The notes under the pieces: generated by a model
What the model was told of the DNA's origin: nothing
The model's input: only the letters and a program-made list of their open reading frames with translations
Databases searched by the model: none
Translations under genes and position numbers: made by a program
Origin: a virus
DNA: 64,000 nt
Virus record (IMG/VR): IMGVR_UViG_3300022902_000008
Reading direction: 5' to 3' (one strand)
In this document: positions 296-44,028 of the stretch, in pieces
How the letters are laid out: the number at the start of each line of letters is the position of its first letter
Numbering within the stretch: the stretch's first letter is position 1

Positions 296-547
296 ATGAT
301 TAAGAATTATAAATTTTCAAAAGAAGTAGTTGCAAGATTAATGCTTATTCTACAAGAAGCCATTATGTTAGAACAAGATGCTGGTCAATTGATTGAAAAT
401 ATCGTTTTGACTGAATCAAATAGAGAACTTGATGATGGTAAGGTTGAATTAACTCTTACAAACAAATATGTCGGTTCATTGTCTGAAGAAACTGCAAAAG
501 CTGTTGAAGATTTTATCGGAACCAATGTTGATGGAAAAGAAGAATAA
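296..547 (+). CDS. Hypothetical protein
   Basis: ATG at 296 after GGAG; in operon. Confidence 0.6.
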   Translation: MIKNYKFSKEVVARLMLILQEAIMLEQDAGQLIENIVLTESNRELDDGKVELTLTNKYVGSLSEETAKAVEDFIGTNVDGKEE

Positions 548-869
548 AGAAAATATTCAAGTCGGAGATTTAATTTGGATTAAGAAAGCATATGCTTGGG
601 CTAACAGTAATTATCAATTTAAGATGTATGATAAAAGACACAAAATAAAAGAATTAGGAGTAATTTATGTTGGGCCAGCAATTGTTGAGGAGTTAGTTTC
701 AAAAGAAGAAAAGTTACATGATTTTATTGATTGTTATTTAAATAGAACATTGATTAGAGCAAAGCTTCTTAAGGAAATAGAACTTAAGGTCAAGAATTAT
801 GGTAAGTGGCATGATGTTAAGGATGACATGGTTTTGGTTTCAATAAATGAATGGAGTTATGTGCAATGA
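531..869 (+). CDS. SH3/KOW-like paralogue family member
   Basis: IQVGDLIWIK...YVGPAIV; start moved to 531. Confidence 0.7.
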   Translation: MEKKNKENIQVGDLIWIKKAYAWANSNYQFKMYDKRHKIKELGVIYVGPAIVEELVSKEEKLHDFIDCYLNRTLIRAKLLKEIELKVKNYGKWHDVKDDMVLVSINEWSYVQ

Positions 870-1002
870 AAAGTTATTTAGCAAAAGATGAGCTATTAGA
901 ATTAGTCCTAAAATTAATTAAAGATAAAAAAGAACAATTTAAATATAGTATTAATTACAATTACTTGTTCGTTAAAAATAAATATTTTAAATAGTTTCGA
1001 GA

Positions 1003-1425
1003 TTGATGGAGGGTAAAATGGATGGTGACTTGTTAAAAGAACGTAATGTCTTGGAAGAGGCAAATTGCTTGTCAGCAACAAAAGCAATTGAACTTATTAT
1101 TTGTGCCTTAACACAAAAAAACAATAAATTATTTTGTAGAGACTATAAAAATAATAATATATTGTGGTTTGAAAATAATAATGTTTCTATATATGTTCAA
1201 AAGTTTTTTTTGAGTTATTGTATATCTCTAGACAAGCTTGATTGTAAACATAATATAAAAAGAACTATTTTTAATAGATGTTTATTTAAATTTGGAAAAT
1301 ATAGACATTTATTAAGGCAACTTAACCCTATTATCATAAATAAGTCATTAATCAATAATAAAAGGCATGAAATGATTAGAAAAGAGGTTGAAAGAGAGTT
1401 CTTAAATGGGGTTGTTAATAATTAA
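1003..1425 (+). CDS. Hypothetical protein
   Basis: 140 aa ORF; true start may be 1018 after GGAGGG. Confidence 0.55.
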   Translation: MMEGKMDGDLLKERNVLEEANCLSATKAIELIICALTQKNNKLFCRDYKNNNILWFENNNVSIYVQKFFLSYCISLDKLDCKHNIKRTIFNRCLFKFGKYRHLLRQLNPIIINKSLINNKRHEMIRKEVEREFLNGVVNN

Positions 1426-1443
1426 TTAGTGGGAGAAAATAAG

Positions 1444-3253: not shown

Positions 3254-3284
3254 GGTTAACAAACCAAGTCAACTATGCTACAAT
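3254..3284 (+). promoter_or_regulatory. Early promoter copy 1, leaderless
   Basis: GGTTAACA, 17 bp, TGc TACAAT; ATG 7 nt downstream at 3292. Confidence 0.8.
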
Positions 3285-3291
3285 GCTTCTT

Positions 3292-3504
3292 ATGAAATGG
3301 ATTAAGCCAACAAAAGAACAACTAGAGGGGTTAAAAGCTGGAACAATTATCTGGTTTAAACACATAAAGTATGATAATGAAAGTGTTTTTGTTATAATAG
3401 GAAGAAGTTCCCATCCTTCCCTTGATTATGAGGTCAAAATGTCAGGCGGTGAAATTGGAGACATATTTAAAAAAGAGATCAAATATATATTAAAGGAAGG
3501 TTGA
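3292..3504 (+). CDS. SH3/KOW-like family member (divergent)
   Basis: LKAGTIIWFK...YEVK...IFKKEI. Confidence 0.55.
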   Translation: MKWIKPTKEQLEGLKAGTIIWFKHIKYDNESVFVIIGRSSHPSLDYEVKMSGGEIGDIFKKEIKYILKEG

Positions 3505-3809
3505 TGATGATGTGTGAACCTAAAAAACGGTTTTTTAAAGTTTGGATCAAGGATCTGTCACATAATAAAGTTAGAAAATATAATTGGAGTTTTTGGATTA
3601 AATATCAAGGCTTAGCAATAATGGAAGAGTATAATTATAAAAACGGGTTATTTAAATCATATATCACACTAACCAATACTGTTGATAGACACGACAGCTA
3701 TTCAGGTACAATCAATAAAAATTGTATTCAAAAACTTACAACATCAAATAATATTTTGGAACTTATTCGTGATGGCTGTTTAGATGTTATTGAAGAGTTG
3801 AAAATTTAA
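3501..3809 (+). CDS. SH3/KOW-like family member
   Basis: KVWIK...YQGLAIM. Confidence 0.6.
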   Translation: MMMMCEPKKRFFKVWIKDLSHNKVRKYNWSFWIKYQGLAIMEEYNYKNGLFKSYITLTNTVDRHDSYSGTINKNCIQKLTTSNNILELIRDGCLDVIEELKI

Positions 3810-3909
3810 TTAAACTTCCTTTTAAATCGATTTTCTTCTTTATGCGTAGAAAGGTATATGCTAAGTTAGAAAAGCCTGTAGCGTTTGAATTTGAATTTCT
3901 AGCTAGCTA

Positions 3910-3937
3910 TTTGGGGGCTTATATGCACAATAAAAAA
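3910..3937 (+). repeat. Dispersed intergenic repeat, partial copy
   Basis: TTTGGGGGCTTATATGCACAATAAAAAA, 24/28 identical to the core of the 35583 copy. Confidence 0.6.
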
Positions 3938-4041
3938 ACAACAAAAATATAACAGTGGTTAATGGGAAATATTTGAAAACAACAAACAAGAAGTGAGGTA
4001 AAAATGTCAAAAATTTATTATGTTGATGAGGAATAATTAAT

Positions 4042-4302
4042 ATGGTGAAAACTTTAAAGTGGACTAAAAAGAAAGGTTCATATAAAGAAGGAACATTCTC
4101 ACTTGGAGATATTGTTTGGTCAATTGATAATAAGTTGTATATAATCACATCTAAACTTAGTCATATTAATTGTATGAGCTTTTTGCTAGAAGAAAACTAT
4201 TTTGTTGATAATGTTTATAATAAAAAAAGACGGCCCTTAAAAAACATTACTATAAAATTTGTTAAAAGGGTTAATAAAGACATGTGGGAGGAAATAAAAT
4301 GA
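4042..4302 (+). CDS. SH3/KOW-like family member (divergent)
   Basis: FSLGDIVWS. Confidence 0.5.
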   Translation: MVKTLKWTKKKGSYKEGTFSLGDIVWSIDNKLYIITSKLSHINCMSFLLEENYFVDNVYNKKRRPLKNITIKFVKRVNKDMWEEIK

Positions 4303-4847
4303 ACAAAGAGCAAGTCAAGTTTCCAGATAAAAAATATAATATCATTTATGCTGACCCTCCTTGGAATTATAATGATAAGGCGTCGGCAGGAAAGAGAGGG
4401 GCTTCTTTTAAATATAACACAATGACATTAGGGGAAATTAAAGATCTTCCTGTTAATAATATTTCAGAAGATAATTGTATTCTTTTCTTGTGGGTTACAT
4501 TTCCTCAGTTGCCAAACGCTTTTGAGGTTATGAAAGAGTGGGGCTTTGAGTATAAGACTGTTGCTTTTAATTGGGTCAAAAAGAATAAAAAGTCTGACTC
4601 ATGGTTTTGGGGAATGGGCAACTGGACAAGATCAAACCCTGAAGTTTGTTTATTGGCGACAAGAGGTAAGCCAAAGAGAATCTCAGCAAGTATTCATTCA
4701 GTAATTGACACACCAATTGAAGGACACAGCAAGAAGCCTGATGAAGCAAGAAAAAGGATTGTTGAGTTGTGTGGAGACTTACCAAGAATTGAATTATTTG
4801 CAAGAGATAAAGTTGATGGTTGGGATTGTTGGGGGGATGAAGTTTAA
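4299..4847 (+). CDS. MT-A70 family N6-adenine methyltransferase
   Basis: YNIIYADPPW, LFLWVT, HSKKP, RIELFAR motifs; RBS GGGAGG. Confidence 0.93.
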   Translation: MNKEQVKFPDKKYNIIYADPPWNYNDKASAGKRGASFKYNTMTLGEIKDLPVNNISEDNCILFLWVTFPQLPNAFEVMKEWGFEYKTVAFNWVKKNKKSDSWFWGMGNWTRSNPEVCLLATRGKPKRISASIHSVIDTPIEGHSKKPDEARKRIVELCGDLPRIELFARDKVDGWDCWGDEV

Positions 4848-4866
4848 AAAAATAACACATAAAGAT

Positions 4867-4897
4867 GGTTAACAAATGGGGTTCTTTGTGTTATGAT
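4867..4897 (+). promoter_or_regulatory. Early promoter copy 2, leaderless
   Basis: GGTTAACA-17-TGt TATGAT; ATG at 4904. Confidence 0.8.
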
Positions 4898-4903
4898 ACT
4901 CAT

Positions 4904-5173
4904 ATGACAGAATATAAAAGATATTATAGAATTGAAGATATTAGAAGGGGAGATATCGTTTGGTTAAGCATTAAGGAGTTTAACAACTCTATTAAGGATA
5001 GCTATTATGGTCTTGCAATAATTGATGCAAGGGAAGGGAGTTGGTCAAAACATGACTATAGCGTATATTTAAGTCAACAATATCTTGGCAATATCAACAT
5101 TGCAATAGGAAAAGAAGAGATTAAGTTTGCTTGGAAGGAGGGCAGATGGGTTTCAATTATGTTCCAAAAGTAG
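4904..5173 (+). CDS. SH3/KOW-like family member
   Basis: IRRGDIVWL...YYGLAII...IGKEEI. Confidence 0.75.
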   Translation: MTEYKRYYRIEDIRRGDIVWLSIKEFNNSIKDSYYGLAIIDAREGSWSKHDYSVYLSQQYLGNINIAIGKEEIKFAWKEGRWVSIMFQK

Positions 5174-5364
5174 GGGAAACTGTTTGGGTTGAGCTTGGGG
5201 GCAAACATAATTATGTTGGTCCAGCATATTGTTATTATGTTAAAAAAGGCTCAGTTCGAACAATAATTTGGCTTAAATGGTCTAAAGGTGAAAATGTATT
5301 TGTTTCGGATAGGACAGATAGAGATAATAATATTATTAAACTTGAAAAAATAGAAGATGTATAG
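5146..5364 (+). CDS. SH3/KOW-like family member
   Basis: PKVGETVWV...YVGPAY. Confidence 0.7.
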   Translation: MGFNYVPKVGETVWVELGGKHNYVGPAYCYYVKKGSVRTIIWLKWSKGENVFVSDRTDRDNNIIKLEKIEDV

Positions 5365-5608
5365 ATCTGAAAAAATATGGATTAAAAAAAGCTTTAAAGC
5401 TGATAATATAGAATATTATTATATTGGTCCAGCATTGATGGAACAAAAGAGCAGTACAGCCATTATATTGTTTCCAAATAAAATATTTATGAAAAACAAT
5501 GCTAGTGGGTTATTTTTTAAGTCAGAAATTCCTGCTACAAAATATTTCCATTCAAACACAGTGAGAAGGTTGATTAGGTCTAACATAATAGAAAAACTGG
5601 AGGAATAA
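5357..5608 (+). CDS. SH3/KOW-like family member (IWIK subtype)
   Basis: KIWIKK...YIGPALM...ILFPNKI. Confidence 0.7.
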   Translation: MYRSEKIWIKKSFKADNIEYYYIGPALMEQKSSTAIILFPNKIFMKNNASGLFFKSEIPATKYFHSNTVRRLIRSNIIEKLEE

Positions 5609-5610
5609 AA

Positions 5611-6081
5611 ATGAAAGAAGAACTAGAAAAAAAGTTATATGAAAAATATCCTAAGATTTTTGCACAAAAAGATTTATCTCCACAAGAAACTTGTATGTGT
5701 TGGGGGTTGCCTGGGGATGGGTGGTATGATTTAATTGATTGTTTGTGCGGTGTTGTTCAAAATATAGTTAATAATGCTGAGAGAACTAATAAGGTTGTTG
5801 ATGATTGTATTGCAAAGGGTGAAAAGCCACCATATGAAAAGGTCCATATTCCTTATGTGGAAGCTGGACAAGTTAAAGAAAAGTTTGGAACGTTGCGTTT
5901 TTATATTGATGGTGGAAATGATGTGATCAACGGTGCAATTTGGATGGCAGAAAATATGTCAGCTTATATTTGTGAGAATTGTGGTGACTCAGGAAAACTT
6001 CGTGGTCGGGGTTGGGTAAAAACATTATGTGATGGTTGTGCAAAAGAAAGTGACTCTAATGAGGGAAAGAAGGATGATTGA
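5611..6081 (+). CDS. Conserved phage protein with C-terminal Zn ribbon
   Basis: GDGW...QVKEKFGTLRFY...CENCG...GWVKTLCDGC. Confidence 0.75.
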   Translation: MKEELEKKLYEKYPKIFAQKDLSPQETCMCWGLPGDGWYDLIDCLCGVVQNIVNNAERTNKVVDDCIAKGEKPPYEKVHIPYVEAGQVKEKFGTLRFYIDGGNDVINGAIWMAENMSAYICENCGDSGKLRGRGWVKTLCDGCAKESDSNEGKKDD

Positions 6082-6280
6082 GGGAGTTTTATCGCTAGTT
6101 GTTGGGTTTGTTTTAATTGGCATTGGGTTTTTTGTTGGGACAAATGTTAAAATGTTCAAAGAGATTAATTTTGTTCAAAAATATTTGCCAGGAAAAGATG
6201 CTGAAGAGTATCTTGAACTATATGATAAAATGATAGCTAATTACAAAAAAGATATAATTGAAAATGCAAGTAAAAAATAA
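6074..6280 (+). CDS. Small membrane protein
   Basis: N-terminal hydrophobic helix VLSLVVGFVLIGIGFFVG. Confidence 0.6.
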   Translation: MIEGVLSLVVGFVLIGIGFFVGTNVKMFKEINFVQKYLPGKDAEEYLELYDKMIANYKKDIIENASKK

Positions 6281-6518
6281 TTATGCTTCTGGAGATCTTG
6301 TATGGGTTAAGATTCCAAATATGGAAGATTTTCTTCCACATTATCATATTGTTTCTAATCATGGTGGGTATGTTGGGCTTGCTATAATCAGCTATAAGAT
6401 TGGGATAGGAAAAGAAAATCCTATAAAATATAATTACGCTTGCAAGCTGCCAGTGAAATTTGAGTCTTTTTATGGTTTTAATGTTAGGGATGAATGGATC
6501 ATTAGAAAGGTAAAATGA
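6264..6518 (+). CDS. SH3/KOW-like family member
   Basis: YASGDLVWVK...YVGLAII...VRDEWI. Confidence 0.75.
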   Translation: MQVKNNYASGDLVWVKIPNMEDFLPHYHIVSNHGGYVGLAIISYKIGIGKENPIKYNYACKLPVKFESFYGFNVRDEWIIRKVK

Positions 6519-6754
6519 GCAAATATAAAATAGGTGATGTTGTTTGGGTTGATGGAAAGTTTTCAAATTGGGAATATAAATTGATCGGGCCAGTTGTTAT
6601 TATGGGAGATGAAGTTGATATTATGTCAGGGCTTTATCGTTCTGATGCGGATTATATTGTTAATAGAGTTAATTATCATTTTGAACTTCTGGGATCAATA
6701 GTGAGATCTACAATCAGAGAAGAGTGGATTAAATATAGGGTTAAAAATGCTTAA
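6515..6754 (+). CDS. SH3/KOW-like family member
   Basis: YKIGDVVWVD...IGPVVI...IREEWI. Confidence 0.75.
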   Translation: MSKYKIGDVVWVDGKFSNWEYKLIGPVVIMGDEVDIMSGLYRSDADYIVNRVNYHFELLGSIVRSTIREEWIKYRVKNA

Positions 6755-7082
6755 AAATTTAAGAGATATTAAAAAGGGTGATATAGTTTGGGTTAATAAT
6801 TTAGAATATACTCCGTCGTGGATGCCTTCAAAATTAAAACTTTATAAACATAACTATGTTGGCTTTGGCATTGTTAGCTATAATCATTCAAGTAATTTTT
6901 CTATATTATTAAATGTTTCACATATGGATGTAGATATTTTTTCTATTAATAAAAATAAAACAAAAAAATGGCTTGGAAAAAACACTAGTGTTACTATATT
7001 TGAACGTAAAGAGATTTGTTCAATTAGAAAGAATAAACACACTGCAAAATATGTTACAATAATAGGAAATATTAATGATTAG
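6747..7082 (+). CDS. SH3/KOW-like family member
   Basis: IKKGDIVWVN...YVGFGIV. Confidence 0.75.
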   Translation: MLKNLRDIKKGDIVWVNNLEYTPSWMPSKLKLYKHNYVGFGIVSYNHSSNFSILLNVSHMDVDIFSINKNKTKKWLGKNTSVTIFERKEICSIRKNKHTAKYVTIIGNIND

Positions 7083-7392
7083 CTTAAACATTAATAAAGG
7101 AGACTTGTTATGGTTTAACAATGTTGAAATGCATGGTAATTTAGTTGAAGGAAATAAATATATACAAATTATTAAATATGTTGGGCCAGGGATTGTTAAG
7201 GAGGTTTTTGCATATAATAATTGTTTCAAAGTTAAGCCATTAAATAATGTAGGGGTAGGGGAGATAATATATAAAATTATTGATGGAGAGGGGTTGGTGT
7301 ATGATCAACATAACACTAAAGGCGAGCGTTATTGTTTTCTTGTAGACAAGCGACAAGTTAAAAATCTAAATCAGATGATAAAAAGGATATAA
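7075..7392 (+). CDS. SH3/KOW-like family member
   Basis: INKGDLLWFN...YVGPGIV. Confidence 0.75.
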   Translation: MISLNINKGDLLWFNNVEMHGNLVEGNKYIQIIKYVGPGIVKEVFAYNNCFKVKPLNNVGVGEIIYKIIDGEGLVYDQHNTKGERYCFLVDKRQVKNLNQMIKRI

Positions 7393-7393
7393 A

Positions 7394-10300
7394 ATGAAAT
7401 ATGCTTTAGTTCACATTCACTCCAATTTTTCGACATTGGATGCACCTTCTAAGATAAAAAACATCGTCAAAAAGGCAAAAGATATTGGATGTCCTGGCGT
7501 ATCAATTTCTGATCATGGTGTTGCTGGCGGATTGTTGCAAGCATATAATGAATGTAAGTCGCAGGATATCAACTTTATTCCAGGTGTTGAATTTTATGTA
7601 AATAACAATAGAGACTTTAAAGACAAAACAAATAGAAAGAATTTTCACTTATGTTTATTTGCAAAAAACTATGAGGGTTATAAAGATTTAATTTGGTTAC
7701 AAGGAGAGTCAACATATAATTTTTATGGCAAGCCAAGGACAACAAATGAACTTATTTTACAAAAAGCAAAAAAAGGAAATCTTATATGCACAACCGCTTG
7801 TCTTGGTTCTGAATTACATCATTATTTTAAAAACAATGAAATATGCTCAGCAAAAGAGTGGATAAAGAAGTATTACAATGTTTTTGGTGATGATCTTTAC
7901 TTAGAACTACAAATAAACGAACTTACAAAAGAACAAAAAGCTTATAATGATAAACTAATTCAGATTTCCAATAAGACAGGCATAAGTTTAACCCTGGGTT
8001 TAGACTCTCATTATGTTGAAAAGGAAGATTGGTTTCTTCAACAGTTAACATTTCTCATTAGGGACAAAAAGACAGTAAAGAGCTTGGAAAGTAATGATGA
8101 CTCTGGGGAGGAAAAGGGAAAGAAAGATGAGGCATGGCAATTTGAAACAAAAAGTCTTTGGATAAAAACACCTGAAGAAGTTATAGAGTGTAATAAGGAG
8201 TTTGGTTATAATTATTCAATAGACTTTATTAAGAGGTTGTTTAGTTCAACTTTAGAAATCAACTCTAAGGTAGATGTTGAAATTCCTTTTTATGACTATA
8301 AGTTTCCTAAACACAAACATCAGGGTGACATATCTTCAAAACAATTATTGATCAACAAGGCTAAGAGTGGGTTAAAACAAAAGTTAAGTGAAGGTAAGGT
8401 TAAAGAAAAAGACATACCTACTTATGTTGATAGAATAAAAGAAGAGATTGATGTCTTAACTAACCATGGAAGAGATTTCTCAGACTATTTTTTGTTTTTT
8501 GATGATATCAAGAACTTTGTATATGAACAAGGTGGTATGTTGGGTGCTGGTCGAGGTTCTGCTTGCGCCAGCTTGCTATTGTGGTTGCTTGATATAACGA
8601 AGCTAGATCCAATAAAGGATGGTTTGATTTTCGAAAGGTTTATTAATAAAGCAAGGCTGGAGACAGATGCAGCAGATCTTGACATTGATATTAGTAGTGA
8701 TGAGTTGCCGTTGGTCGAAGAGTGGCTAAAGAAAAGATATGGTGAACGCTCTGTTTGTTCTGTGGGCAATTACACTAAGTTCAGTATAAAAAATACAATA
8801 AAAGATGTTGCAAGGGCCTTGGCAGTTGATGATGACTTAAAAGTGATTAACAACATCACTAAAACATTAAATGATAAAAGTGAGGATGTCAATGAGGAGT
8901 GGGCATTAGCAGCAAAAAGGTTTAAAAAGAATTCTAGGGAATACAAATGGCTAGAAAAACATGAGAGAGATGTTCTTAAGTGGAGTAGCAAGTTGGTTGG
9001 CTGTATTAGAAATGTGGGCCAACACGCTTCAGGGCTTGTTGTTGTGCCTGGAGAATTGTATGATCATGTTCCATTGTTGTATCATAAGAAAAAGACGTTG
9101 ACAGCCTATGTAGAGGGCGTTGAATATCGAGAACTTCCACAAGTAGGGGTGTTAAAGTTAGATTTGCTTGGATTGTCAACAGCAGCTATTATTAACAATA
9201 CAATAAAGTTGATTAAAGAGAGACATGATGACTTTCCCTATGATCAAAAAACAATATTTGATATTGATAGAGAAGACAAGAATATTTTAGATGAGTTTGC
9301 AAAAGGGAACACTGATAATTGTTTTCAGTTTGAGTCTGATGGCATGAAAAGCTTATTACAAAATATTTGTGTTAGTAGTTTTAGTGATGTTGTTTTGTGC
9401 AATGCATTATATCGTCCTGGGGCTTTAGGTGCTAATATGCATAATGTGGCTGTTGAAAATAAATTTAAGGGTGATGATATTACATATGTGCATCCGAAAG
9501 TCAAAGGTATTGTAGAAAAGACCTACGGAGTTCCAGCATTTCAGGAGCAAGTTTTGTTCACATTGCAAAAAATTGGCAACTTAAGTTTAAGTGAGAGTGA
9601 TTTGGCTAGAAAAACAATCAAAGCTTTAGGTAAGGCAAAGAAGAGTCCAGAAGAGTTAGAAAAGCTTAATGCATTTTTAAAAACATTTGCAAAGGGTGCA
9701 AAAGAAAATGGCCTTAATGATAAGGAGGTTAGCAAGATTTTAGAGTGGTTAAGAGCAAGCAGTGATTATTCATTCAACAAGTCACACTCAGCAGCATATT
9801 CATTAAACTCATATATTACGTTATGGTTAAAAAAGAATTATCCAATTGAATTCTTTACTGCTGTTTTAGCGAATGTACAATCTAACGAAGAAAAATTATA
9901 TACAACTTTAAGTGAGGCAAGAAAAAATAATGTAAAAATAAATTATATCGATATTAATGAATCTGGTTGGGATTTTTTTATTGTTGATAATGAGATTTAT
10001 TGTGGCTTTGGTTTTCTTAAGGGTACAAGTAAAAAAGATATTAACAAGGTGCTAGCTCTAAGGCCATTTACATCTATAAATGATTTTATACAAAAGGCAT
10101 TGGAACATGGCATATCAAAGAAAACAGTTTATCCATTGATTCAAACAGGTATTACGAGAAATATACATTCTAATGGTAGAGAATTAATAGAGATATATGA
10201 GAGAACAAAAAAGATTTGCAAAAGGAAAAGTTTTGAGTGGGATCAAATTGATGATATAATTACTGAAGTTAGCTTAGAAGATCTTAAGCCATACAACAAA

Positions 10301-10798
10301 CAAGAACTTGTTGACTTTGAACTGAAGTATATTGGGTTTTATTTGCAATCAGATGTTTTGGCTATGTATGATAAATATATTCAAATGTTTGGTGCAATGC
10401 TAGTAAGTGAAATGAATATAATGCCAAAACAAGTTTGTGTTAATAAGTATACCCAAAAAGAATCAACTGAATACAAATATCATATTTGCGGCATTATTGT
10501 TAACTCAGTGATTAAGAAAACTAAAAAAGGAAAAGAATATAGAATTGTTGAAGTTTCAGATTATACAGGCAAGGCTAGCTCTGGGTTGTCATTTAAAATA
10601 TGGGAGCCAAAGTTAATAGAAAAGTGTTATAATTCTGAAGCCAAGGATTTGCTGAGTAAGGGTTCTGTTGTTTTGGCTAAACTCTCAAAGAATGATTTTG
10701 GATATTCATTGCAAAAGTTTGATGTTAATAATATTGAAAACATGGATATATCAAAATTCCCATTTATTAACTTGAACATTTTAAGTTTGGAGGTTTAA
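7394..10798 (+). CDS. dnaE: DNA polymerase III alpha subunit (family C)
   Basis: PHP domain (HIHSNFS..D, SDHG, DSHY), GRGSA, DLDID, KLDLLGL, FQFES, FNKSHSAAY, C-terminal OB fold; no intein seen. Confidence 0.97.
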   Translation: MKYALVHIHSNFSTLDAPSKIKNIVKKAKDIGCPGVSISDHGVAGGLLQAYNECKSQDINFIPGVEFYVNNNRDFKDKTNRKNFHLCLFAKNYEGYKDLIWLQGESTYNFYGKPRTTNELILQKAKKGNLICTTACLGSELHHYFKNNEICSAKEWIKKYYNVFGDDLYLELQINELTKEQKAYNDKLIQISNKTGISLTLGLDSHYVEKEDWFLQQLTFLIRDKKTVKSLESNDDSGEEKGKKDEAWQFETKSLWIKTPEEVIECNKEFGYNYSIDFIKRLFSSTLEINSKVDVEIPFYDYKFPKHKHQGDISSKQLLINKAKSGLKQKLSEGKVKEKDIPTYVDRIKEEIDVLTNHGRDFSDYFLFFDDIKNFVYEQGGMLGAGRGSACASLLLWLLDITKLDPIKDGLIFERFINKARLETDAADLDIDISSDELPLVEEWLKKRYGERSVCSVGNYTKFSIKNTIKDVARALAVDDDLKVINNITKTLNDKSEDVNEEWALAAKRFKKNSREYKWLEKHERDVLKWSSKLVGCIRNVGQHASGLVVVPGELYDHVPLLYHKKKTLTAYVEGVEYRELPQVGVLKLDLLGLSTAAIINNTIKLIKERHDDFPYDQKTIFDIDREDKNILDEFAKGNTDNCFQFESDGMKSLLQNICVSSFSDVVLCNALYRPGALGANMHNVAVENKFKGDDITYVHPKVKGIVEKTYGVPAFQEQVLFTLQKIGNLSLSESDLARKTIKALGKAKKSPEELEKLNAFLKTFAKGAKENGLNDKEVSKILEWLRASSDYSFNKSHSAAYSLNSYITLWLKKNYPIEFFTAVLANVQSNEEKLYTTLSEARKNNVKINYIDINESGWDFFIVDNEIYCGFGFLKGTSKKDINKVLALRPFTSINDFIQKALEHGISKKTVYPLIQTGITRNIHSNGRELIEIYERTKKICKRKSFEWDQIDDIITEVSLEDLKPYNKQELVDFELKYIGFYLQSDVLAMYDKYIQMFGAMLVSEMNIMPKQVCVNKYTQKESTEYKYHICGIIVNSVIKKTKKGKEYRIVEVSDYTGKASSGLSFKIWEPKLIEKCYNSEAKDLLSKGSVVLAKLSKNDFGYSLQKFDVNNIENMDISKFPFINLNILSLEV

Positions 10799-10911: not shown

Positions 10912-11109
10912 ATGAAAAACAAAAAATATAAAGTTGGTGAACATGTTTGGATTGATATAGGATTTTATTGTGGCCCTGCAATTATAGAGAAAGAGGACGT
11001 TGATGAAAAGTGGTTATTTGGCTATAATGTTAAAATTATGGGTGCAATGAAGGATAATATTTGGATTTCTAGAAAAGAAATTAAAGGGTTAAACAATGAC
11101 AATGCCTAG
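10912..11109 (+). CDS. SH3/KOW-like family member (minimal domain)
   Basis: YKVGEHVWID..YCGPAII...YNVKI...ISRKEI. Confidence 0.75.
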   Translation: MKNKKYKVGEHVWIDIGFYCGPAIIEKEDVDEKWLFGYNVKIMGAMKDNIWISRKEIKGLNNDNA

Positions 11110-11341
11110 ATTGGTATTAGGGCAAAGGGTTAACTTGAAGGGTGATGTCGCATGGCTCTCTAGTTGTAGAGAAAGTGGTTATTATGAAGGGCCAGTTAGG
11201 TTAATATCTAAGTTTCATAATTTATATTTATGTGAAGTTCCAATGGAGGTTTTTATCGAATTTAGTTCAACAAGAAGAAAAAATAAAACTAGAAGCTTTT
11301 GGATTATGGAAGATAAAATTAAAATGATTAAAAGGGCATAA
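11096..11341 (+). CDS. SH3/KOW-like family member
   Basis: LVLGQRV...YEGPVRL...IMEDKI. Confidence 0.6.
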   Translation: MTMPRLVLGQRVNLKGDVAWLSSCRESGYYEGPVRLISKFHNLYLCEVPMEVFIEFSSTRRKNKTRSFWIMEDKIKMIKRA

Positions 11342-11345
11342 TAAA

Positions 11346-11699
11346 ATGACTTATATACATAAAGATAAAAAGGAATGGGGTAGTTATAATAAAAATGATA
11401 TTAATTATGGAAAATGGATTAAAAGATATAAAAATAACAAGATATATGAAATTTCTAAGTTATTAACTACAACAAAAAACTTATTAAATGGAACAAATAA
11501 ATTATATGGTTTTAAAGTTGGTGAATTAGTTTGGGTTAATCATGAATTATATAGAGGGGTCGGGATAATAAAGCATTTTAGGTTTTTAGAACTGCAAAAG
11601 AGAGTTGTTGTTACTAGCTCTTATCCTTTTGCGATTATAGCTAACAAATATGGCAAGAAAGATTTAGAATGTACAAAAGAAATGATAAGAAAAGCATGA
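11346..11699 (+). CDS. SH3/KOW-like family member
   Basis: FKVGELVWVN..YRGVGII. Confidence 0.7.
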   Translation: MTYIHKDKKEWGSYNKNDINYGKWIKRYKNNKIYEISKLLTTTKNLLNGTNKLYGFKVGELVWVNHELYRGVGIIKHFRFLELQKRVVVTSSYPFAIIANKYGKKDLECTKEMIRKA

Positions 11700-12573: not shown

Positions 12574-13299
12574 TTGAAGAAGGAAAAAGTTTATATTTAT
12601 CCAAATGAAAAAGAAAAAATTGGTTGTGTTGAATATGTCGATCACATGGGATCAGATAAAGATATTGTTAATGCGGCAAGAGCAAGTGTTGGTAAAGAAA
12701 GTAAAAAGCCATTCTCAGAAAAAGATAGAGAGTTAATGAAATATCTTATAGAAAATAAACACACCAGTCCTTTTGAACATGTTAAGCTTAAGTGTAGGTT
12801 TACTGTTCCATTGTTTGTTAGAAGTCAACATATGAGGCACAGATTATGGAATTTCAATGAATTAAGTCGGAGATTCACAGACAAAGATATCCAATTTTAT
12901 TTACCGAAATCATTTAGGACACAACATGAAAATAATATACAAGCAAGTAACAATGACTCAATTAATCCAAAAATTCATACTTGTGTTTCTATGGGTGAAA
13001 GCAAATTAGCAGATTTGTTAGTTGAGTCCACTACAAATAAATGTTTTATTGCATATCAAAAGTTATTAGATGCAAATATTACAAGAGAGCAAGCAAGAAT
13101 GATTCTTCCTCAAAACTTATATACAACTTATATTGGAACCTGTGATCTTCATAATTTATTTCATTTTTTATCATTAAGGCTTGGTGAACATGCTCAATAT
13201 GAAATTAGAGTTGTTGCTGAGGCATTATTGTATTATTGTGAACAGTTATTCCCGGAAGCGACAAGCTTATTTAAGGAGGTTAGGTTAGATGACATATAG
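12574..13299 (+). CDS. thyX: Flavin-dependent thymidylate synthase
   Basis: HTSPFEH, RHRx7S signature (RHRLWNFNELS), REQARMILP, HAQYEIR. Confidence 0.96.
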   Translation: MKKEKVYIYPNEKEKIGCVEYVDHMGSDKDIVNAARASVGKESKKPFSEKDRELMKYLIENKHTSPFEHVKLKCRFTVPLFVRSQHMRHRLWNFNELSRRFTDKDIQFYLPKSFRTQHENNIQASNNDSINPKIHTCVSMGESKLADLLVESTTNKCFIAYQKLLDANITREQARMILPQNLYTTYIGTCDLHNLFHFLSLRLGEHAQYEIRVVAEALLYYCEQLFPEATSLFKEVRLDDI

Positions 13300-13540
13300 A
13301 GCTTTTGAATCACATAGTTGTTGTAGACTGAAAGATGGGTTTTTAGTTGAAGTGGGTGGGTCATATTGGGTTAATATCTGTGCTGATAGGGTTAGAAATT
13401 ATAAAGGGCCAATTGTTGTTGATAGTATTGAAGCTGTAGTTTTTGATGGTGATTATACTTTTAGCATAGGCGTAAAAAAGTCTATAGGTGGTTTTTGTTT
13501 TGTGACGTTCGATGAGATAACGGTTATTTGTGAAATTTGA
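13289..13540 (+). CDS. SH3/KOW-like family member
   Basis: VEVGGSYWVN...YKGPIVV...VTFDEI. Confidence 0.65.
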   Translation: MTYRAFESHSCCRLKDGFLVEVGGSYWVNICADRVRNYKGPIVVDSIEAVVFDGDYTFSIGVKKSIGGFCFVTFDEITVICEI

Positions 13541-14167: not shown

Positions 14168-14174
14168 TTAAATT

Positions 14175-32319: not shown

Positions 32320-32598
32320 ATGAGCACTATCTTATGGCTATTATTAATATTGTTTGTTGCGTTCTTAGGAACATTTCAATTATTAGCATTAATGTTTATT
32401 ATAATGTTCTTAGTAGCATGTACACCAGCAATTGTTGTGTTGACTATTGGAATATACTTAACAATAAAGATAGGTGGGTTCATTGGTGCATTGTTGGTAA
32501 TATTAACATTGTTTGGTGCAGGGTTTGTAACTTATCATTGGTTCGAAAGTGGAGCAGTTGATGCAATTACAAAGACCCTTGGTATGGACAATTGGTAA
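32320..32598 (+). CDS. Membrane protein (about 3 TM helices)
   Basis: Continuous hydrophobic stretches. Confidence 0.65.
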   Translation: MSTILWLLLILFVAFLGTFQLLALMFIIMFLVACTPAIVVLTIGIYLTIKIGGFIGALLVILTLFGAGFVTYHWFESGAVDAITKTLGMDNW

Positions 32599-32852
32599 AA
32601 GAAATAAAAAAATGGAACAAAGGTGATATTGTTTGGGTCAAAGTAAATACTTATATGTGTGGATCAGAAAGCGAAAAGAGATATGATAACCCTCCTCTAT
32701 ATAAAGGACCAGCAATTATTGTCAGTGTTAATTACAATTTAAGTTATAGGCCTATATATAGAATCAAAACAATGTATGATCGCAATGTCTTGTACAATTA
32801 TAATTATAGAATAACAGAAGAAAATATATTGTACAAGATACCCCAAGGTTAA
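32592..32852 (+). CDS. SH3/KOW-like family member
   Basis: WNKGDIVWVK...YKGPAII...YRIK...ITEENI. Confidence 0.78.
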   Translation: MVKEIKKWNKGDIVWVKVNTYMCGSESEKRYDNPPLYKGPAIIVSVNYNLSYRPIYRIKTMYDRNVLYNYNYRITEENILYKIPQG

Positions 32853-34859: not shown

Positions 34860-35099
34860 ATGAAAGTATTGGAAAGCATGGTTTATGTTGGTAATCGTAT
34901 TTTGTTTAGCATGGTATTGCTTATGCTTATGTGTGTCTATGCATATCTTGCGCCATGGGGTATTGGGAATGTTGCAATGAATTTATTTGTGTTATGTGTT
35001 TCAGCATTTCTTTATGTTGTGGTTTGGGTTCCATATGCGAAGCTGAGCCTTCGTTATGAGCTTGTAAGAATTAAGAATAAGTATAGAAATGAGCAATAA
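34860..35099 (+). CDS. Two-TM membrane protein
   Basis: Two hydrophobic helices; GGGAGG RBS. Confidence 0.65.
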   Translation: MKVLESMVYVGNRILFSMVLLMLMCVYAYLAPWGIGNVAMNLFVLCVSAFLYVVVWVPYAKLSLRYELVRIKNKYRNEQ

Positions 35100-35379
35100 T
35101 AAAAACAATACGTTTAATGCTGGTGATGTTGTTTGTGTACAATTACCAAGTGATCCTAAAGAATGTGGTTGGACAAATGGAAAGTCTACTTATACTGGAT
35201 ATAATGGAATTGTTTTAATAATGGAAGAGTGTGACTTTACATACACTTCTTTTGATTATAAAATTAAAATACTTGGAACAAAAAAACAACGTGATCAGTT
35301 TTTTGTAAGAACCAATTGGATCACACACAAATTAAGCAATGGAGGAAACAATGAGGTCAAATGGATTAAGTGTAAATGA
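35089..35379 (+). CDS. SH3/KOW-like family member
   Basis: FNAGDVVCV...YNGIVLI...YKIKI...VRTNWI. Confidence 0.7.
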   Translation: MSNNKNNTFNAGDVVCVQLPSDPKECGWTNGKSTYTGYNGIVLIMEECDFTYTSFDYKIKILGTKKQRDQFFVRTNWITHKLSNGGNNEVKWIKCK

Positions 35380-35578
35380 GTTATTCAATTTGATGCAGAC
35401 TTTAAAATCTGCTGGTCATGGTGATTGCGAGGTATTGATTCGTTCTATTGATGAGATTACATGCAATGTTTTTACAGATAAGTACACAATGTATATTTTG
35501 GGTGATAATAATTGTCTCTCTAAGATCGACCCAGAATCGACTGGCGAGAAGCCTAATGTCATTGTATTAGAATATTGA
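35351..35578 (+). CDS. Hypothetical protein
   Basis: GGAGG RBS before ATG 35351. Confidence 0.6.
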   Translation: MRSNGLSVNELFNLMQTLKSAGHGDCEVLIRSIDEITCNVFTDKYTMYILGDNNCLSKIDPESTGEKPNVIVLEY

Positions 35579-35582
35579 CAGG

Positions 35583-35647
35583 ATTGATTGTGGGCTAAAT
35601 TTGGTTTTATTGGTATTGATTTGGGGCTTTATATGTGCAATAAAAAA
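35583..35647 (+). repeat. Dispersed intergenic repeat
   Basis: Homologous to 22651-22715 (inverted) and 3910-3937. Confidence 0.7.
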
Positions 35648-35757
35648 GTGATAAAAATAAAGGCTGGACAATGGCATAACTTAGGTTTAAAAGAGGGGAA
35701 GAAATATCTTATATGGTTGGTTGTTAATGGTGATCTTAATAATAAAGAGTTAAATTG

Positions 35758-36048
35758 ATGGACAATAAATATAAAGTAGGTGATGTTATATTTTGCAAAG
35801 CATATTATTATAATTATAGAAAAGATGTTTATTATAATAAAAAAGATATTGATAATAAATATTACTATATGGCTGATGATGCAGGTGATATTTATTATTA
35901 TGGTGTTGGCATAATAGCTGGTTATAGAACTAGTGGTATGTATCATGATCATGATGCTATATATTTAGTTAATGGCATTGCCAGTGGTATTAATAATTAT
36001 GATCATGATTCAATGGTGGTTCGAGAGAGGGATATAATGCAAGGTTGA
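35758..36048 (+). CDS. SH3/KOW-like family member
   Basis: YKVGDVIFCK...YYGVGII...YLVN...VRERDI. Confidence 0.72.
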   Translation: MDNKYKVGDVIFCKAYYYNYRKDVYYNKKDIDNKYYYMADDAGDIYYYGVGIIAGYRTSGMYHDHDAIYLVNGIASGINNYDHDSMVVRERDIMQG

Positions 36049-37528: not shown

Positions 37529-37774
37529 ATGATATGTCCTATTAATCCTGGTGTTTATTTTTTGAGACAAAGCCAAACAAGTGACTTTTTAAACATTAAT
37601 GATATTCTTCCTTTGTCAATTAAATATAAGGACTATTCAGGTTTAGTTTTTATTAAAGGTTTTGTTTGTAATGCTAAGAAGGGCCGAGTAGTTTTTAAGG
37701 TTAAGGTTTTGGGTTATGATAGGTCATGTTATCTGAGATGTTTTATTGGTAATTTAATAAAGGTTGAGTGTTAA
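37529..37774 (+). CDS. SH3/KOW-like family member
   Basis: INPGVYFL...YSGLVFI...FKVKV. Confidence 0.55.
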   Translation: MICPINPGVYFLRQSQTSDFLNINDILPLSIKYKDYSGLVFIKGFVCNAKKGRVVFKVKVLGYDRSCYLRCFIGNLIKVEC

Positions 37775-38044
37775 ATGAGTTATTCTGATCAGTTTTATAT
37801 GGGAAGAGGCTTTTATTGGATTGATGGGCTATCAATATATAATTCAGATATTGGGTATCCAATTAGATATTATGGCTTGGCTTTAATTAATGATTTTTTT
37901 CAAAACACAAAAGGACAAAATTTTGTTAAGTTTCATGTTTTAATGGGTGGCGCAATAAAGAAGAGAGAGTTTTATTATCAGGTTTGGGGTGATGATTTTA
38001 AAAAAATAAAGTTTATTGAAAAAACAGGAGGGCAAGATGAATGA
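37775..38044 (+). CDS. SH3/KOW-like family member
   Basis: GFYWID...YYGLALI. Confidence 0.62.
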   Translation: MSYSDQFYMGRGFYWIDGLSIYNSDIGYPIRYYGLALINDFFQNTKGQNFVKFHVLMGGAIKKREFYYQVWGDDFKKIKFIEKTGGQDE

Positions 38045-40320: not shown

Positions 40321-40819
40321 TAAGAAAACATACCTCACGTCAGATTTTCATTTTGGCCATGAGAACATTATAAAGTTTTGCAATAGGCCATTTAAAAATC
40401 GACATCAAATGGACTCAGCTATGATTGACAATTACAATTCAATAGTTGCTGATGATGATATTGTTTTCATTCTTGGTGATTTTTCTATGTCAAATAATAG
40501 AGAGGTCATTTCTTCTTATTGCAATAAACTTAAGGGACAAAAACATTTAATACTTGGCAATCATGATAGGATGAGGCCTTTTGCATATGTTGACTGTGGC
40601 TTTGCATCTGTTCATACATCTTATGTTTTAGAAAAATATAATTTATTTATGGTTCATGATCCTGCTGTTTGTGTTGTTGGTAAACAGATGGGATACAATT
40701 GTGTTTGTGGTCATATCCATAATTTATTTAAGTTTCATAATGGTGTTCTTAATGTTGGCGTTGATGTTAGTGATTTTAAACCGATATCAATTGACAAGGT
40801 AATGGAACATTATGTTTGA
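40310..40819 (+). CDS. Calcineurin-like metallophosphoesterase
   Basis: SDFHFGH, LGD, GNHD, H, GHIH, NVGVD; probable TTG start at 40310. Confidence 0.92.
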   Translation: MIVDKKTYLTSDFHFGHENIIKFCNRPFKNRHQMDSAMIDNYNSIVADDDIVFILGDFSMSNNREVISSYCNKLKGQKHLILGNHDRMRPFAYVDCGFASVHTSYVLEKYNLFMVHDPAVCVVGKQMGYNCVCGHIHNLFKFHNGVLNVGVDVSDFKPISIDKVMEHYV

Positions 40820-41096
40820 TGTTGGAGATGTAGTTTGGATTGGTGAGGCTAATGTAGTAAAAAGTCATTTAATGAACTTATATATTGCCAACAAAGTTAA
40901 AGATAAGTTTGGTATTGTTGTTGGCTTTAATGGCTCGTTTAATAAAAATAATGCAGATGTTTATGTCAAAGTTAAAATTAATTATAATGCAAAAAGAGAT
41001 TCTTGGAATTTTATAGGAATAGAAGACAATACATCTATTGTGTTTCTTTTTGATCATGATTGTGATTGTTTATCATTGGTAAAGAAAAATGGCTGA
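40812..41096 (+). CDS. SH3/KOW-like family member
   Basis: FDVGDVVWIG...FGIVVG...VYVKV. Confidence 0.68.
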   Translation: MFDVGDVVWIGEANVVKSHLMNLYIANKVKDKFGIVVGFNGSFNKNNADVYVKVKINYNAKRDSWNFIGIEDNTSIVFLFDHDCDCLSLVKKNG

Positions 41097-41406
41097 TAAA
41101 AATAAAAAACTTAACATAGTTCCAAACTATAAAATTGGTGATGTTGTGTGGGTTAAGTGTGCCCTTGAAGAATCTAATTATTATGAAATTTATTTATATA
41201 ATAATAATATTGATCAATATAAAAATGATTTTAATGAGAATTCATTTGTTGGTGTTGCAATTATTAATTATGTTGAATTATATTTAGGCGCTGACAAATA
41301 TGATTTTGAAAGTCCAGAATTAAACTTTATTACATATGAAGTTTATTTATCTAACGGGGTGTTCCACTCCATATCGGAACATGAGATATTATATAAAATA
41401 GGATAA
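41089..41406 (+). CDS. SH3/KOW-like family member
   Basis: YKIGDVVWVK...FVGVAII...YEVY...ISEHEI. Confidence 0.78.
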   Translation: MADKNKKLNIVPNYKIGDVVWVKCALEESNYYEIYLYNNNIDQYKNDFNENSFVGVAIINYVELYLGADKYDFESPELNFITYEVYLSNGVFHSISEHEILYKIG

Positions 41407-41409
41407 CAA

Positions 41410-42072
41410 ATGGTTATTAACAATAAAGGTAAGTGTAAAAAGTTAAGTTTATATCAGAGGATAAAGATTATTAATTATAATCAATCTGCGTTCTTTTATA
41501 TGTTTATACTTAATTTTATATTGTTTAATATTTTTGCTTTGTTTTTTTTGGCATTTAATGTTTATTCTTGTGGTTTTATTGTTATTTCATATTCAATATC
41601 ATCTGTATTATATTTATTGTTTGATTTTTTTAAATTTCATTCTATTGATAACATTATAAGAAATTGGAATAATTATTTTTCAATTGAAGATAATAATTTA
41701 TTTTTTGTATCATTTAAGATGGAGCCATTTATGTTTGATGTTGATTATATTGCTAAAAAATATTTTAAAGATAGTGGTCCTTATCATTTTTCTTGTCGAT
41801 TAAATGCGTATGATTATTTAGATAATAATGTTAAAAATAGACAATATAATGGGCTGATTAAGATTGATTTTAAAAACTCTAAATTATATAGTAATAATGA
41901 CATTGTGTTTTTTAGTGAAAGTAAGAAAGGTTTTAACGGAATTAATAATAGGTTTATTGATGATATGTTTTTAGAGTTATCTTTTTATGTTTTTACTGAT
42001 AATAAAATGTTGTATTTAAATCATTTTGTAGGTAGTTTTGATAAATTTTATATAGTAGAAAATCATGATTAA
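41410..42072 (+). CDS. Two-TM membrane protein
   Basis: Two hydrophobic helices; YNGLIKI in the soluble part. Confidence 0.6.
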   Translation: MVINNKGKCKKLSLYQRIKIINYNQSAFFYMFILNFILFNIFALFFLAFNVYSCGFIVISYSISSVLYLLFDFFKFHSIDNIIRNWNNYFSIEDNNLFFVSFKMEPFMFDVDYIAKKYFKDSGPYHFSCRLNAYDYLDNNVKNRQYNGLIKIDFKNSKLYSNNDIVFFSESKKGFNGINNRFIDDMFLELSFYVFTDNKMLYLNHFVGSFDKFYIVENHD

Positions 42073-42721
42073 TTTTTTTAAACAATTTAAGCTTGATTTT
42101 AAAAAGTTAAGTTATATTTATAAAATGTTGTTTTGTTCTATTTATGGAAATGATGCTTATTTTGTTGTATTTGCTTTACCTGCTATTTGTCTTGTGTTGT
42201 CTGCTGTTTGTTTAAGCATAAGCAGTCTCCCTTCCCTTTATTATCTAATGGTTATTTTTTGTTGCATTTTTATGTTTGTGTGTGTTATATTTTCTATTGT
42301 TTGTAGAGTACTTGATGATAAATATATATCTGAAATATTTGATAATTTAGTTTATTTGGAAAGTGGTAAAATTTATTGGGTTGATAACTTTTGTTATAAT
42401 AAAATAGACTTTATTGATAGTAATAAAAATAAATTTATTAATAATTTTTTTGGTATTGTTAAAGTTTGTTATATTGGCGAATGTTCATACTCTTTTGAGA
42501 GATGTAGTCATGATAATTTTTTCATATTAAAAGATCGATATCGTTTAAATGGTAATAAATATATTAAAGGATTTAATAGGTATTATGAGTTGGTTCTTAG
42601 ATTAAGTGGGAATAATAATGAAGATATAAAGCTTGGTTTTTCTGGATCTTCTTTTCTTGAGCGAACTGATTATAGTTTTGATGGTATAAAAGAAATTAAT
42701 ATGGAGGAGACAAATGGCTAG
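42065..42721 (+). CDS. Two-TM protein fused to an SH3/KOW-like domain
   Basis: TM pair, then LESGKIYWVD...FFGIVKV. Confidence 0.6.
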   Translation: MINFFKQFKLDFKKLSYIYKMLFCSIYGNDAYFVVFALPAICLVLSAVCLSISSLPSLYYLMVIFCCIFMFVCVIFSIVCRVLDDKYISEIFDNLVYLESGKIYWVDNFCYNKIDFIDSNKNKFINNFFGIVKVCYIGECSYSFERCSHDNFFILKDRYRLNGNKYIKGFNRYYELVLRLSGNNNEDIKLGFSGSSFLERTDYSFDGIKEINMEETNG

Positions 42722-43478
42722 TTATGATTCACATTATTATTTTTGTGCTTGTATGTGCAAAGAGCTAGGTTTATCTGAGAAAGCAATAAAAAATGTTGCT
42801 TGGGCAAATCAGGCAATTGATGAAATGACTCCAAGAAAATTGCAACAGCATATTGGTTCGTCTGCGAAGAAAATGGTTTCGACACAGTGTTATGATTTTG
42901 ATTGGTGGAAGAGTTCTGATTATCCTGATCCAAGAACAATAATTTGGAAGAAGTTTCATTTTCCTGATATTATTACATGTCATATAAAAGATATTTGTAA
43001 GCTTATTTCTGATGATCGAATGAATATCGATCATGATTTATATAATCAGTTATTGTTGGGCAGGTATTTTCATACATATATGGATAGTTTTACTCATCAA
43101 GGATTTTTACCTTATTGTTCTGACAAGAATAAAAATAATTTGAAGGGTAGACCATGGAAAGAATTTTGGAAGAAAGTCCCACCTTCAATTGGTCATGCTG
43201 AGTTTGGAAATGAGCCAGATGAAATAGATATGGTATGGTATAATCAACTTGGTGATGTTGTCGATAATAAGAAAAGGTGGATTCAAATAGTTCAAACTGC
43301 AAGAGAACATTTAATGAAGTTTTTTCCTGATTGTATTGATTTGATTGTTGGCTATTATGATAAGGGTTCTAGGGTCAAGGCGATGAAAGAATATTCTGGA
43401 ATTGGGGAGTCTTGGAAATGGAGTGATAAAAAAATAATGGTAATGCAGAATATTGTTAAGAGGGAGTTTTTTGGATAA
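42714..43478 (+). CDS. DUF6765-like / zinc phospholipase C-fold protein
   Basis: HYY, QAIDE, FHFP, LGRYFHTYMDSFTHQGF, IGHAE..PD. Confidence 0.6.
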   Translation: MASYDSHYYFCACMCKELGLSEKAIKNVAWANQAIDEMTPRKLQQHIGSSAKKMVSTQCYDFDWWKSSDYPDPRTIIWKKFHFPDIITCHIKDICKLISDDRMNIDHDLYNQLLLGRYFHTYMDSFTHQGFLPYCSDKNKNNLKGRPWKEFWKKVPPSIGHAEFGNEPDEIDMVWYNQLGDVVDNKKRWIQIVQTAREHLMKFFPDCIDLIVGYYDKGSRVKAMKEYSGIGESWKWSDKKIMVMQNIVKREFFG

Positions 43479-44028
43479 ATTTAAGAATGTTATATATGAT
43501 GATCAAGTTGTGCTTAAGAGACATATTATAGATAGGTTTATTGAGAATTATAATAATGGTTTAAAGCTTGGTAATGTTGTTTGGACTAAAGTATATGAAT
43601 TTATGTGTAATGACAATCGTTTAAGTTTTGAAGAGTATGACAAGAAATATGTAGAAAATAATTGTTTGTCTGATTGTATAGTTTATGATGGGTTAGCGAT
43701 TGTCAGTAATCAGGATTGTGATGGTGAAATTGATGATGACTTAAGATATGAAAATGTATGTGGGTTGAGTCTTGATAGTTTCGATAAATATTTTGTTGAT
43801 TTAGAGTTTTTGGATGGTGTTGGAGAAGTTTGCCGTAAAATAAATCGTGATATTTTAACTCAAAGGCTTTTCTTTATGAATGATTATTGTTATTATGATG
43901 CAAAGATAGATAAGTTTTTTTATTATGTTAGCTTTCCTTTTGATATTGCCGTTAAAAGTATTATGGGTAAGTCTGTTTTTAGGTGTAATTATTTTGATGT
44001 TCTTGAAGATAACATTAAGGCAATTTAA
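43453..44028 (+). CDS. SH3/KOW-like family member with long insertions
   Basis: LKLGNVVWTK...YDGLAIV...YYVSF...VLEDNI. Confidence 0.65.
   Translation: MLRGSFLDKFKNVIYDDQVVLKRHIIDRFIENYNNGLKLGNVVWTKVYEFMCNDNRLSFEEYDKKYVENNCLSDCIVYDGLAIVSNQDCDGEIDDDLRYENVCGLSLDSFDKYFVDLEFLDGVGEVCRKINRDILTQRLFFMNDYCYYDAKIDKFFYYVSFPFDIAVKSIMGKSVFRCNYFDVLEDNIKAI

Follow-up and report, generated by a model that had tools for sequence, protein, structure and literature searches.

An uncultured marine jumbo phage with an expanded, lineage-specific family of small, predicted SH3-like proteins

A multigene family of small proteins

We analysed a 64,000 nucleotide stretch of viral DNA (IMG/VR record IMGVR_UViG_3300022902_000008, the whole of which we refer to as the window), which comes from an uncultured marine jumbo phage and carries a lineage-specific multigene family of small, single-domain proteins of 65–140 amino acids. 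The family genes are interspersed with genes for replication and nucleotide metabolism, in dense runs whose members often overlap. Their products keep the core strands GDxVW[VI], YxGPAII, YxV and V/IxExxI[L]YKI, whilst the loops between these strands differ in both length and sequence; among members with clear motifs, the spacing from strand 1 to strand 2 runs from 4 to ~33 residues.

A first-pass annotation of the window had described about 40 paralogues built on one shared skeleton, and the skeleton was borne out. The short pattern GDx[VIL][WYC][VILF] alone returned 18 open-reading frames (ORFs) sharing the N-terminal context, whilst a strict two-motif pattern ([VIL]W[VILFS] x3–50 [YF]xG[PLIVFA][AGVCI][IVLFY][IVLM]) matched 20 ORFs against 0.14 in shuffled sequences, and a loose two-motif pattern matched 38 against 7.3. 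Hidden Markov model (HMM) searches were iterated on all 568 six-frame ORFs of the window, with their shuffled copies as decoys. The HMM built from the 20 canonical members only recovered 20 of 20 at E-values of 1e-9 to 1e-25, with the first shuffled decoy at E 0.31, and also picked up a 12-residue fragment at 22305–22400 (E 4e-4). Within the window, the iterated search converged on 31 genes at an inclusion threshold of E < 0.01 and 38 genes at E < 0.2, without a single decoy, the E-values of members that joined during iteration being inflated by self-inclusion.

The family is thus far above chance, but the figure of about 40 is best taken as an upper bound. Judged from sequence, about 21 members are solid, 6–7 are probable (the KIWIHKH...YIGPAI subgroup), 4–5 are doubtful (the repeat-fused subgroup) and ~10 are candidates at the level of motifs. 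Nearly all of the positions listed at first were recovered, but those at 5131, 11096, 13289, 13530, 21400, 33499, 34534 and 42065 were found by eye or with the loose pattern only. The last of these had been described as a fusion to a pair of transmembrane segments (42065–42721); two hydrophobic segments are present, but its domain was not significant by HMM (E ~2). Evidence of coding comes from the ORFs themselves, which stay intact over 65–140 codons in DNA of 30% GC content with only one family copy broken (22305–22585), and from Shine-Dalgarno-like motifs, which stand at 28 of 43 family starts against a background of 19%. It is very likely that the family is a genuine expansion and that its small proteins are translated.

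Three subgroups can be told apart. Group A, the canonical form, reads [YF]KxGDxVW[VI], a loop of 4–33 residues, YxG[PL]AII and YxV, often with a terminal V/IsExEILYKI. Group B (3507, 5357, 21962, 23461, 23733, 24048 and 24342) starts with K[IV]WIHKH and has no YKxGD part, whilst keeping YIGPAI; under the HMM of group A its members score mostly E 0.01–0.25, ahead of the first decoy, with 24048 at E 4. Group C (22884, 25269, 26546 and 27987) consists of 2–4 WYLNG..HRxDGPA repeats followed by a C-terminal KGKLHNNNFLxSDQYTGPIIIMGGKNKIRFMK..VIE domain. Metagenomes hold a very large number of proteins with this repeat type (7973, many with PF20530); the C-terminal domain was seen in the window phage's own proteins only. 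Group C is weakly linked to the core family (group A HMM E 0.4–4; hhalign over 17 columns, P 3e-3; skeleton fitted by eye), and three of its four genes stand first behind a copy of the promoter motif described below. The members, promoter motifs and recognisable neighbouring genes are listed in Table 1.

Table 1 Family members, promoter motifs and neighbouring genes in the window. E-values refer to the HMM built from group A only unless stated otherwise.
Position	Strand	Feature	Remarks
531–869	+	Canonical member, 112 amino acids, long loop between strands 1 and 2	E 4e-16
3283–4302	+	Promoter-headed group: weak 3292–3504, subgroup B 3507–3809, weak 4042–4302	
4904–5608	+	Promoter-headed array: canonical 4904–5173, motif-level 5131–5364, subgroup B 5357–5608	
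6264–7392	+	Four overlapping canonical members (6264, 6515, 6747, 7075)	E 2e-21 to 8e-15; end 2 nt before DnaE gene
7394–10798		DnaE-type polymerase	
10912–11699	+	Array just 3' of DnaE: canonical 10912–11109, motif-level 11096–11341, canonical 11346–11699	
13289–14594	+	Motif-level candidates 13289 and 13530, canonical 14175–14594	
21400–22291	+	Motif-level 21400–21630, B-like 21962–22291	
22305–22585	+	Chimeric frameshifted gene	Canonical N-terminus and repeat-type gene
22884–23468	+	Subgroup C 22884–23237, weak 23241–23468	Behind promoter copy at 22836
23461–24605	−	Four tandem subgroup B genes (KIWIHKH...YIGPAI)	Junctions 90% identical DNA
26546–26968, 26346–26549, 26116–26349, 25911–26111	−	Promoter-headed cassette 1: C, A, A and weak, in that order	
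25269–25622, 24949–25272	−	Promoter-headed cassette 2: C and A, in that order	
27120–28373	+	Canonical 27120–27374 and 27640–27990, then subgroup C 27987–28373	
29885–31030		MoxR-type AAA ATPase	
32592–32852	+	Canonical member	E 3e-20
35089–36048	+	Canonical members 35089–35379 and 35758–36048	Group A HMM
37529–38044	+	Two borderline members	Iterated HMM: E 0.02–0.05 before inclusion, 1e-4 after
40812–41406	+	Two adjacent canonical members	Group A HMM
43471–44028	+	Canonical domain with long C-terminal extension, 185 amino acids	E 1e-12
44078–45295		CCA-adding or poly(A)-polymerase-like enzyme	Own promoter copy in front
45705–47888		GMP-reductase/IMPDH-like gene and adjoining truncated adenylosuccinate-synthetase-like gene	
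54027–55622		VWA/DUF2201 putative metallopeptidase	
Within window		ThyX, MT-A70 methylase, class I methylase	Pfam/PHROG searches of larger ORFs
3255, 4868, 10833, 22268, 22836, 28356, 28475, 29184, 29425, 33409, 33837, 44050, 53999, 63194	+	Promoter motif	
24982, 25676, 27022	−	Promoter motif	

The ORF at 13820–14167, between the motif-level candidates and the canonical member at 14175, showed no skeleton.

A repeated promoter-like motif

The motif GTTAACA-N13–15-TGnTAnnnT occurs in 20 copies, where 2.3 are expected from shuffled sequences, and reads as a −35-like element with an extended −10, that is, as a sigma-70-like promoter. About half of the copies (~10) lie just upstream of a family gene, at 3255, 4868, 10833, 22268, 22836 and 33409 on the + strand and at 25676, 27022 and possibly 24982 on the − strand, with a degenerate copy near 27065 counted among them. 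The first ATG follows 6–8 nt past the −10 at 3255, 4868 and 22268, which suggests leaderless mRNAs. Many family genes therefore do stand directly behind a repeated promoter-like motif, as the first-pass annotation had it, but calling these promoters early is an inference by analogy.

Predicted fold and database classification

AlphaFold2, run on the member at 6267–6515 with 26 paralogues as the alignment, produced a five-stranded barrel (strands at residues 11–15, 36–44, 57–60, 71–73 and 78–82) with a short helical turn (75–77) before the last strand, at a predicted local distance difference test score (pLDDT) of 79. Foldseek searches of the PDB with this model returned SH3-like barrels only (PsaE, YorP, Tudor and the FTR variable chain), with weak E-values. 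An exhaustive VIA structure search placed a Tudor domain first (6if4, Z 7.1), followed by SGF29, PHF19 and TDRD3, and then, at Z ~6, by PsaE, Spt5/NusG KOW, PWWP, chromo and YorP; matches in BFVD and the ESM Atlas were SH3-like barrels as well, including one BFVD match annotated as YorP. For the one member modelled, these results agree with the SH3/Tudor/KOW topology, with its turn before the last strand, that had been proposed at first, and the members probably share an SH3-like fold. No single SH3-like family stands out among the matches of the predicted structure.

Sequence searches gave no such placement. Pfam searches with 10 and then 30 members (E up to 1) found no match, including none to KOW (PF00467), Tudor, ProQ or SH3_3 (PF08239), the best of the PHROG hits of 30 members had an E-value of 0.012, with no PHROG family matched by more than one member, and sequence-profile searches of the PDB gave nothing below E 0.27. 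The highest score in an ESM Atlas feature search (0.85) was in the range of chance. The only hint from sequence was the GDxVW of strand 1, which resembles the GDLVWAK of PWWP domains (NSD2 PWWP, E 1.3–2, over 16 residues). The fold is thus a known one, whereas the sequence family is an orphan.

Among the systems to which the family can be compared, the Tudor/Royal domains are the best structural matches of the modelled member (Z 6.4–7.1, root mean square deviation 2–3 Å; TbTudor 6if4, SGF29 3me9, PHF19 6wau and TDRD3 5yj8, with the PWWP of NSD2 in the same family), sharing a five-stranded bent barrel with a core of 55–65 residues. The conserved W of strand 1 and Y of strands 2 and 3 could be core residues or cage residues alike. 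The Tudor/Royal proteins, however, are eukaryotic readers of chromatin and methyl marks without significant sequence similarity to the phage proteins, which are single-domain and multiplied ~40-fold. KOW domains of NusG and Spt5 (2xhc, 1m1g and 4zn3; Z 5.7–6.6) have the same barrel topology and a Gly-Asp-x-Val opening strand 1, but the phage family has no NGN domain, and none of 30 members matched the Pfam KOW family. YorP of the Bacillus subtilis SPbeta prophage (2heq, PF09629; Z 6.2, Foldseek rank 4) is likewise phage-encoded, ~70–85 amino acids long and SH3-like, but has no sequence match to the window family and is not known to have expanded into a family of its own.

Neither the family nor such arrays were found described in the literature searched, and the first-pass annotation recognised no described system of this size. 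In size the family is not unique, but comparable to the ~35-copy, lineage-specific zinc-ribbon expansion of Bacillus phage G, which was called unprecedented in 2021 (PMC7824862). Phage G is also a jumbo phage that has multiplied one tiny domain tens of times, although the domain is of another fold, and a role as transcription factors or in DNA binding was proposed for its copies (PMC7824862).

Duplication, recombination and selection

The best pairwise identity between members is mostly 25–40%, rising to 35–55% in group B and 58–67% in group C, and several nearest paralogues adjoin each other. Between 22 and 28.4 kb the window holds direct and inverted repeats with 74–90% DNA identity, which span the promoter, the lead gene and gene junctions. 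At 22305–22585 a canonical N-terminus (MKRKSYKVGDTIWIK) is fused out of frame to a gene of the WYLNG/HRxDGPA-repeat type, and the downstream part lacks a start codon. The chimera is probably a scar of recombination or a pseudogene. Repeated duplication, both tandem and inverted, and recombination between cassettes have enlarged the family, in which most copies are old and a few are recent.

At the junctions between the tandem subgroup B genes (23952–24374; last codons, spacer and first 13 codons) the DNA is 90% identical, whilst the gene bodies have diverged. Such a combination suggests either gene conversion at the junctions or constraint on translation signals.

Ratios of non-synonymous to synonymous substitution (dN/dS, Nei-Gojobori) were 0.3–0.8 wherever they could be measured: 0.33–0.47 in group C and 0.5–0.76 in group B (dS near 1), with a value of ~1 in one pair, 25911/26116. 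Over stretches of 1–20 kb, the window is nearly identical to contigs assembled from four further seawater runs, and the few listed differences cluster at 4577–4820, near contig ends. Near-identity across runs implies that the variation in the loops lies between paralogues and not within the population. Thus, the loops described at first as hypervariable are indeed very variable in length between strands, but only between old paralogues, the phage being near-clonal across the four runs. Diversity-generating retroelement-type or other in-population hypervariation was rejected, as the family genes of these near-clonal contigs contained no variable sites; a reverse transcriptase did not turn up in Pfam and PHROG searches of the larger ORFs, which covered part of the ORFs. 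The family evolves by birth and death, selection on it is mostly purifying, and its diversity lies between old paralogues.

Homologues in related phages

A profile search of 1.84 billion representative proteins returned 30 at E < 1e-3, comprising 20 products of the window, three unrelated long proteins and seven true outside homologues. Arrays were present on contigs of two related marine phages: the first (L009, 5 kb, 31% GC) carries eight or nine family members, the second (L010, 42% GC, with a DnaE 56% identical to that of the window) has two members directly after DnaE, the position taken by the member at 10912 in the window. Near its DnaE gene, L010 also encodes an NAD-dependent DNA ligase and an ART-PolyVal ADP-ribosyltransferase-like gene (4423–9997). 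The contig of a further homologue (P0019) bears GMP-reductase-like, PurA-like and PurB-like genes, the first two kinds of which are also found in the window. Four members lie within 20 kb on contig L005; the samples that yielded it are those of the window phage, so that it may belong elsewhere in that phage's genome.

A phage with a DnaE 33% identical had no family member within 10 kb. Taken together, these contexts make the family a hallmark of a single marine phage clade, with no known relatives outside it. In IMG/VR viral contigs, scans located one distant locus with DnaE, without family members, and none with the PurA-like gene; the family alignment itself has no stretch conserved enough for an IMG/VR search pattern. 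A word-indexed homologue search with the widened alignment retrieved only five proteins. As members score only 20–30 bits each, database-wide searches must miss many.

Putative function

The best explanation overall, to which we give a probability of roughly 45%, is that an expanded SH3-like family supplies early binders of different targets. The proteins would be made early or in mid-infection by the host RNA polymerase, and each would bind a different host (or phage) macromolecule stoichiometrically, by means of the variable loops on the common barrel, in the service of host takeover or counter-defence. The more specific claim that they bind diverse host targets is tentative and falls somewhat short of even odds; it is suggested by the scaffold-plus-loops architecture, by the genomic position and by analogy with small phage proteins of host takeover. 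The isoelectric points (pI) of the family range from 4.4 to 9.9, a spread more in keeping with diverse targets than with a single nucleic-acid ligand common to all. In its most far-reaching form, which we consider unlikely, the arrays would encode a whole repertoire of binders that share one barrel, with a different host defence or housekeeping protein neutralised by each paralogue, and the repertoire would change in size by recombination at the promoter cassettes, as a phage "accordion".

Several observations weigh against early binders of different targets. Wherever selection could be measured, no sign of positive selection was seen, and the population shows almost no variation, which together leave active arms-race diversification unsupported. 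The fold is based on one modelled member, with Z scores of 6–7 in the range that the tool calls common, whilst the model of a group C protein was poor (pLDDT 63, with the C-terminal domain below 50) and profile-profile links between the subgroups are short. The label "early" comes from analogy with sigma-70 and T4 early promoters only.

A less likely alternative, though a live rival to the binder reading, is that the proteins bind nucleic acids, in the manner of KOW, the Tudor-like C-terminal domain of ProQ, PSHCP or Sso7d, and act as RNA or DNA chaperones, modulators of transcription or translation, or accessory factors of the replisome. SH3-like barrels this small often bind RNA or DNA, and the structural matches include KOW (NusG, Spt5), the PSHCP Tudor domain and an ssDNA-bound PWWP, with a phage ProQ-C-like cluster among the look-alikes in the ESM Atlas. 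Members also flank the DnaE gene in the window and lie next to DnaE in L010, and for jumbo phages a small SH3-fold protein has been described beside a phage DNA polymerase (PMC7824862). The median pI of 8.9 would suit such a role, but it is no higher than that of the phage's other small proteins (8.8), from which the family does not differ in net charge, and the 43 members include 8 acidic ones. The 30 members searched gave no sequence signal of KOW, NusG, Tudor or ProQ, and so no support to the NusG-KOW-like mimics that the first-pass annotation had put forward beside a library of binders or decoys; moreover, ~40 diverged copies are hard to square with one generic ligand.

It is more doubtful still, and in our view improbable, that the expansion is largely neutral or selfish, the small genes hitch-hiking with a recombinogenic promoter cassette and most copies having little or no function. 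Promoter copies do stand at cassette borders, the DNA repeats span gene junctions, one copy is chimeric and broken, and the pair 25911/26116 evolves at a dN/dS of ~1. However, all but one of ~38–43 ORFs are intact at 25–40% identity, which in AT-rich DNA, where stops arise easily, implies long persistence; dN/dS falls below 0.5 in recent copies, the core motif is conserved throughout, and arrays have been kept in two related phages of different GC content. Least probable of all, to the point of being far-fetched, is a role in structure or assembly, for instance as virion decoration or scaffolding modules instead of intracellular effectors. SH3-like domains do occur in phage tail and lysin proteins, some of them among the BFVD and Atlas matches, but every copy is surrounded by genes for replication, nucleotide metabolism and methylases, searches of the window's larger ORFs turned up no recognisable structural gene, and the proteins are single-domain without signal or anchor sequences, except possibly 42065.

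If the ~40 proteins are indeed specific binders, they would be among the largest phage effector repertoires known, and nature would have provided a library built on a minimal scaffold that can readily evolve. Should the accordion model hold, arrays of mini-SH3 proteins would constitute a general and undescribed counter-defence strategy of large phages; if the copies are neutral instead, the locus still shows promoter-flanked cassettes inflating the genomes of jumbo phages.

Source phage and gene context

All 24 runs in which sequence of the window phage turned up are seawater metagenomes, dated 2018 and 2020, with no RNA run among them, and the longest contig bearing its proteins measures 216,854 bp. 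The window has a GC content of 29–36% and is nearly all coding, on the + strand except for an inverted block at 23.4–27.0 kb. Its recognisable genes, from Pfam and PHROG searches of the larger ORFs, have functions in replication and nucleotide metabolism, and its DnaE is less than 30% identical to that of any GenBank phage. No tRNA genes were found in the 64-kb window, which encodes the CCA-adding or poly(A)-polymerase-like enzyme. The truncated adenylosuccinate-synthetase-like gene is PurA-like by sequence; its identification as PurZ was rejected, as it matched cellular PurA at E 3e-47 versus phage PurZ at E 3e-17. MoxR-type AAA ATPases and VWA/DUF2201 proteins are usually partners, and their genes lie 23 kb apart in the window.

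Upstream of the window, one extra family member was found within 9.5 kb, at 227–517 of contig L013. The same part of that contig (1–9470) holds a replication block with a 5'-3' exonuclease, a DnaB helicase, an intein-containing ribonucleotide reductase and an AAA protein.

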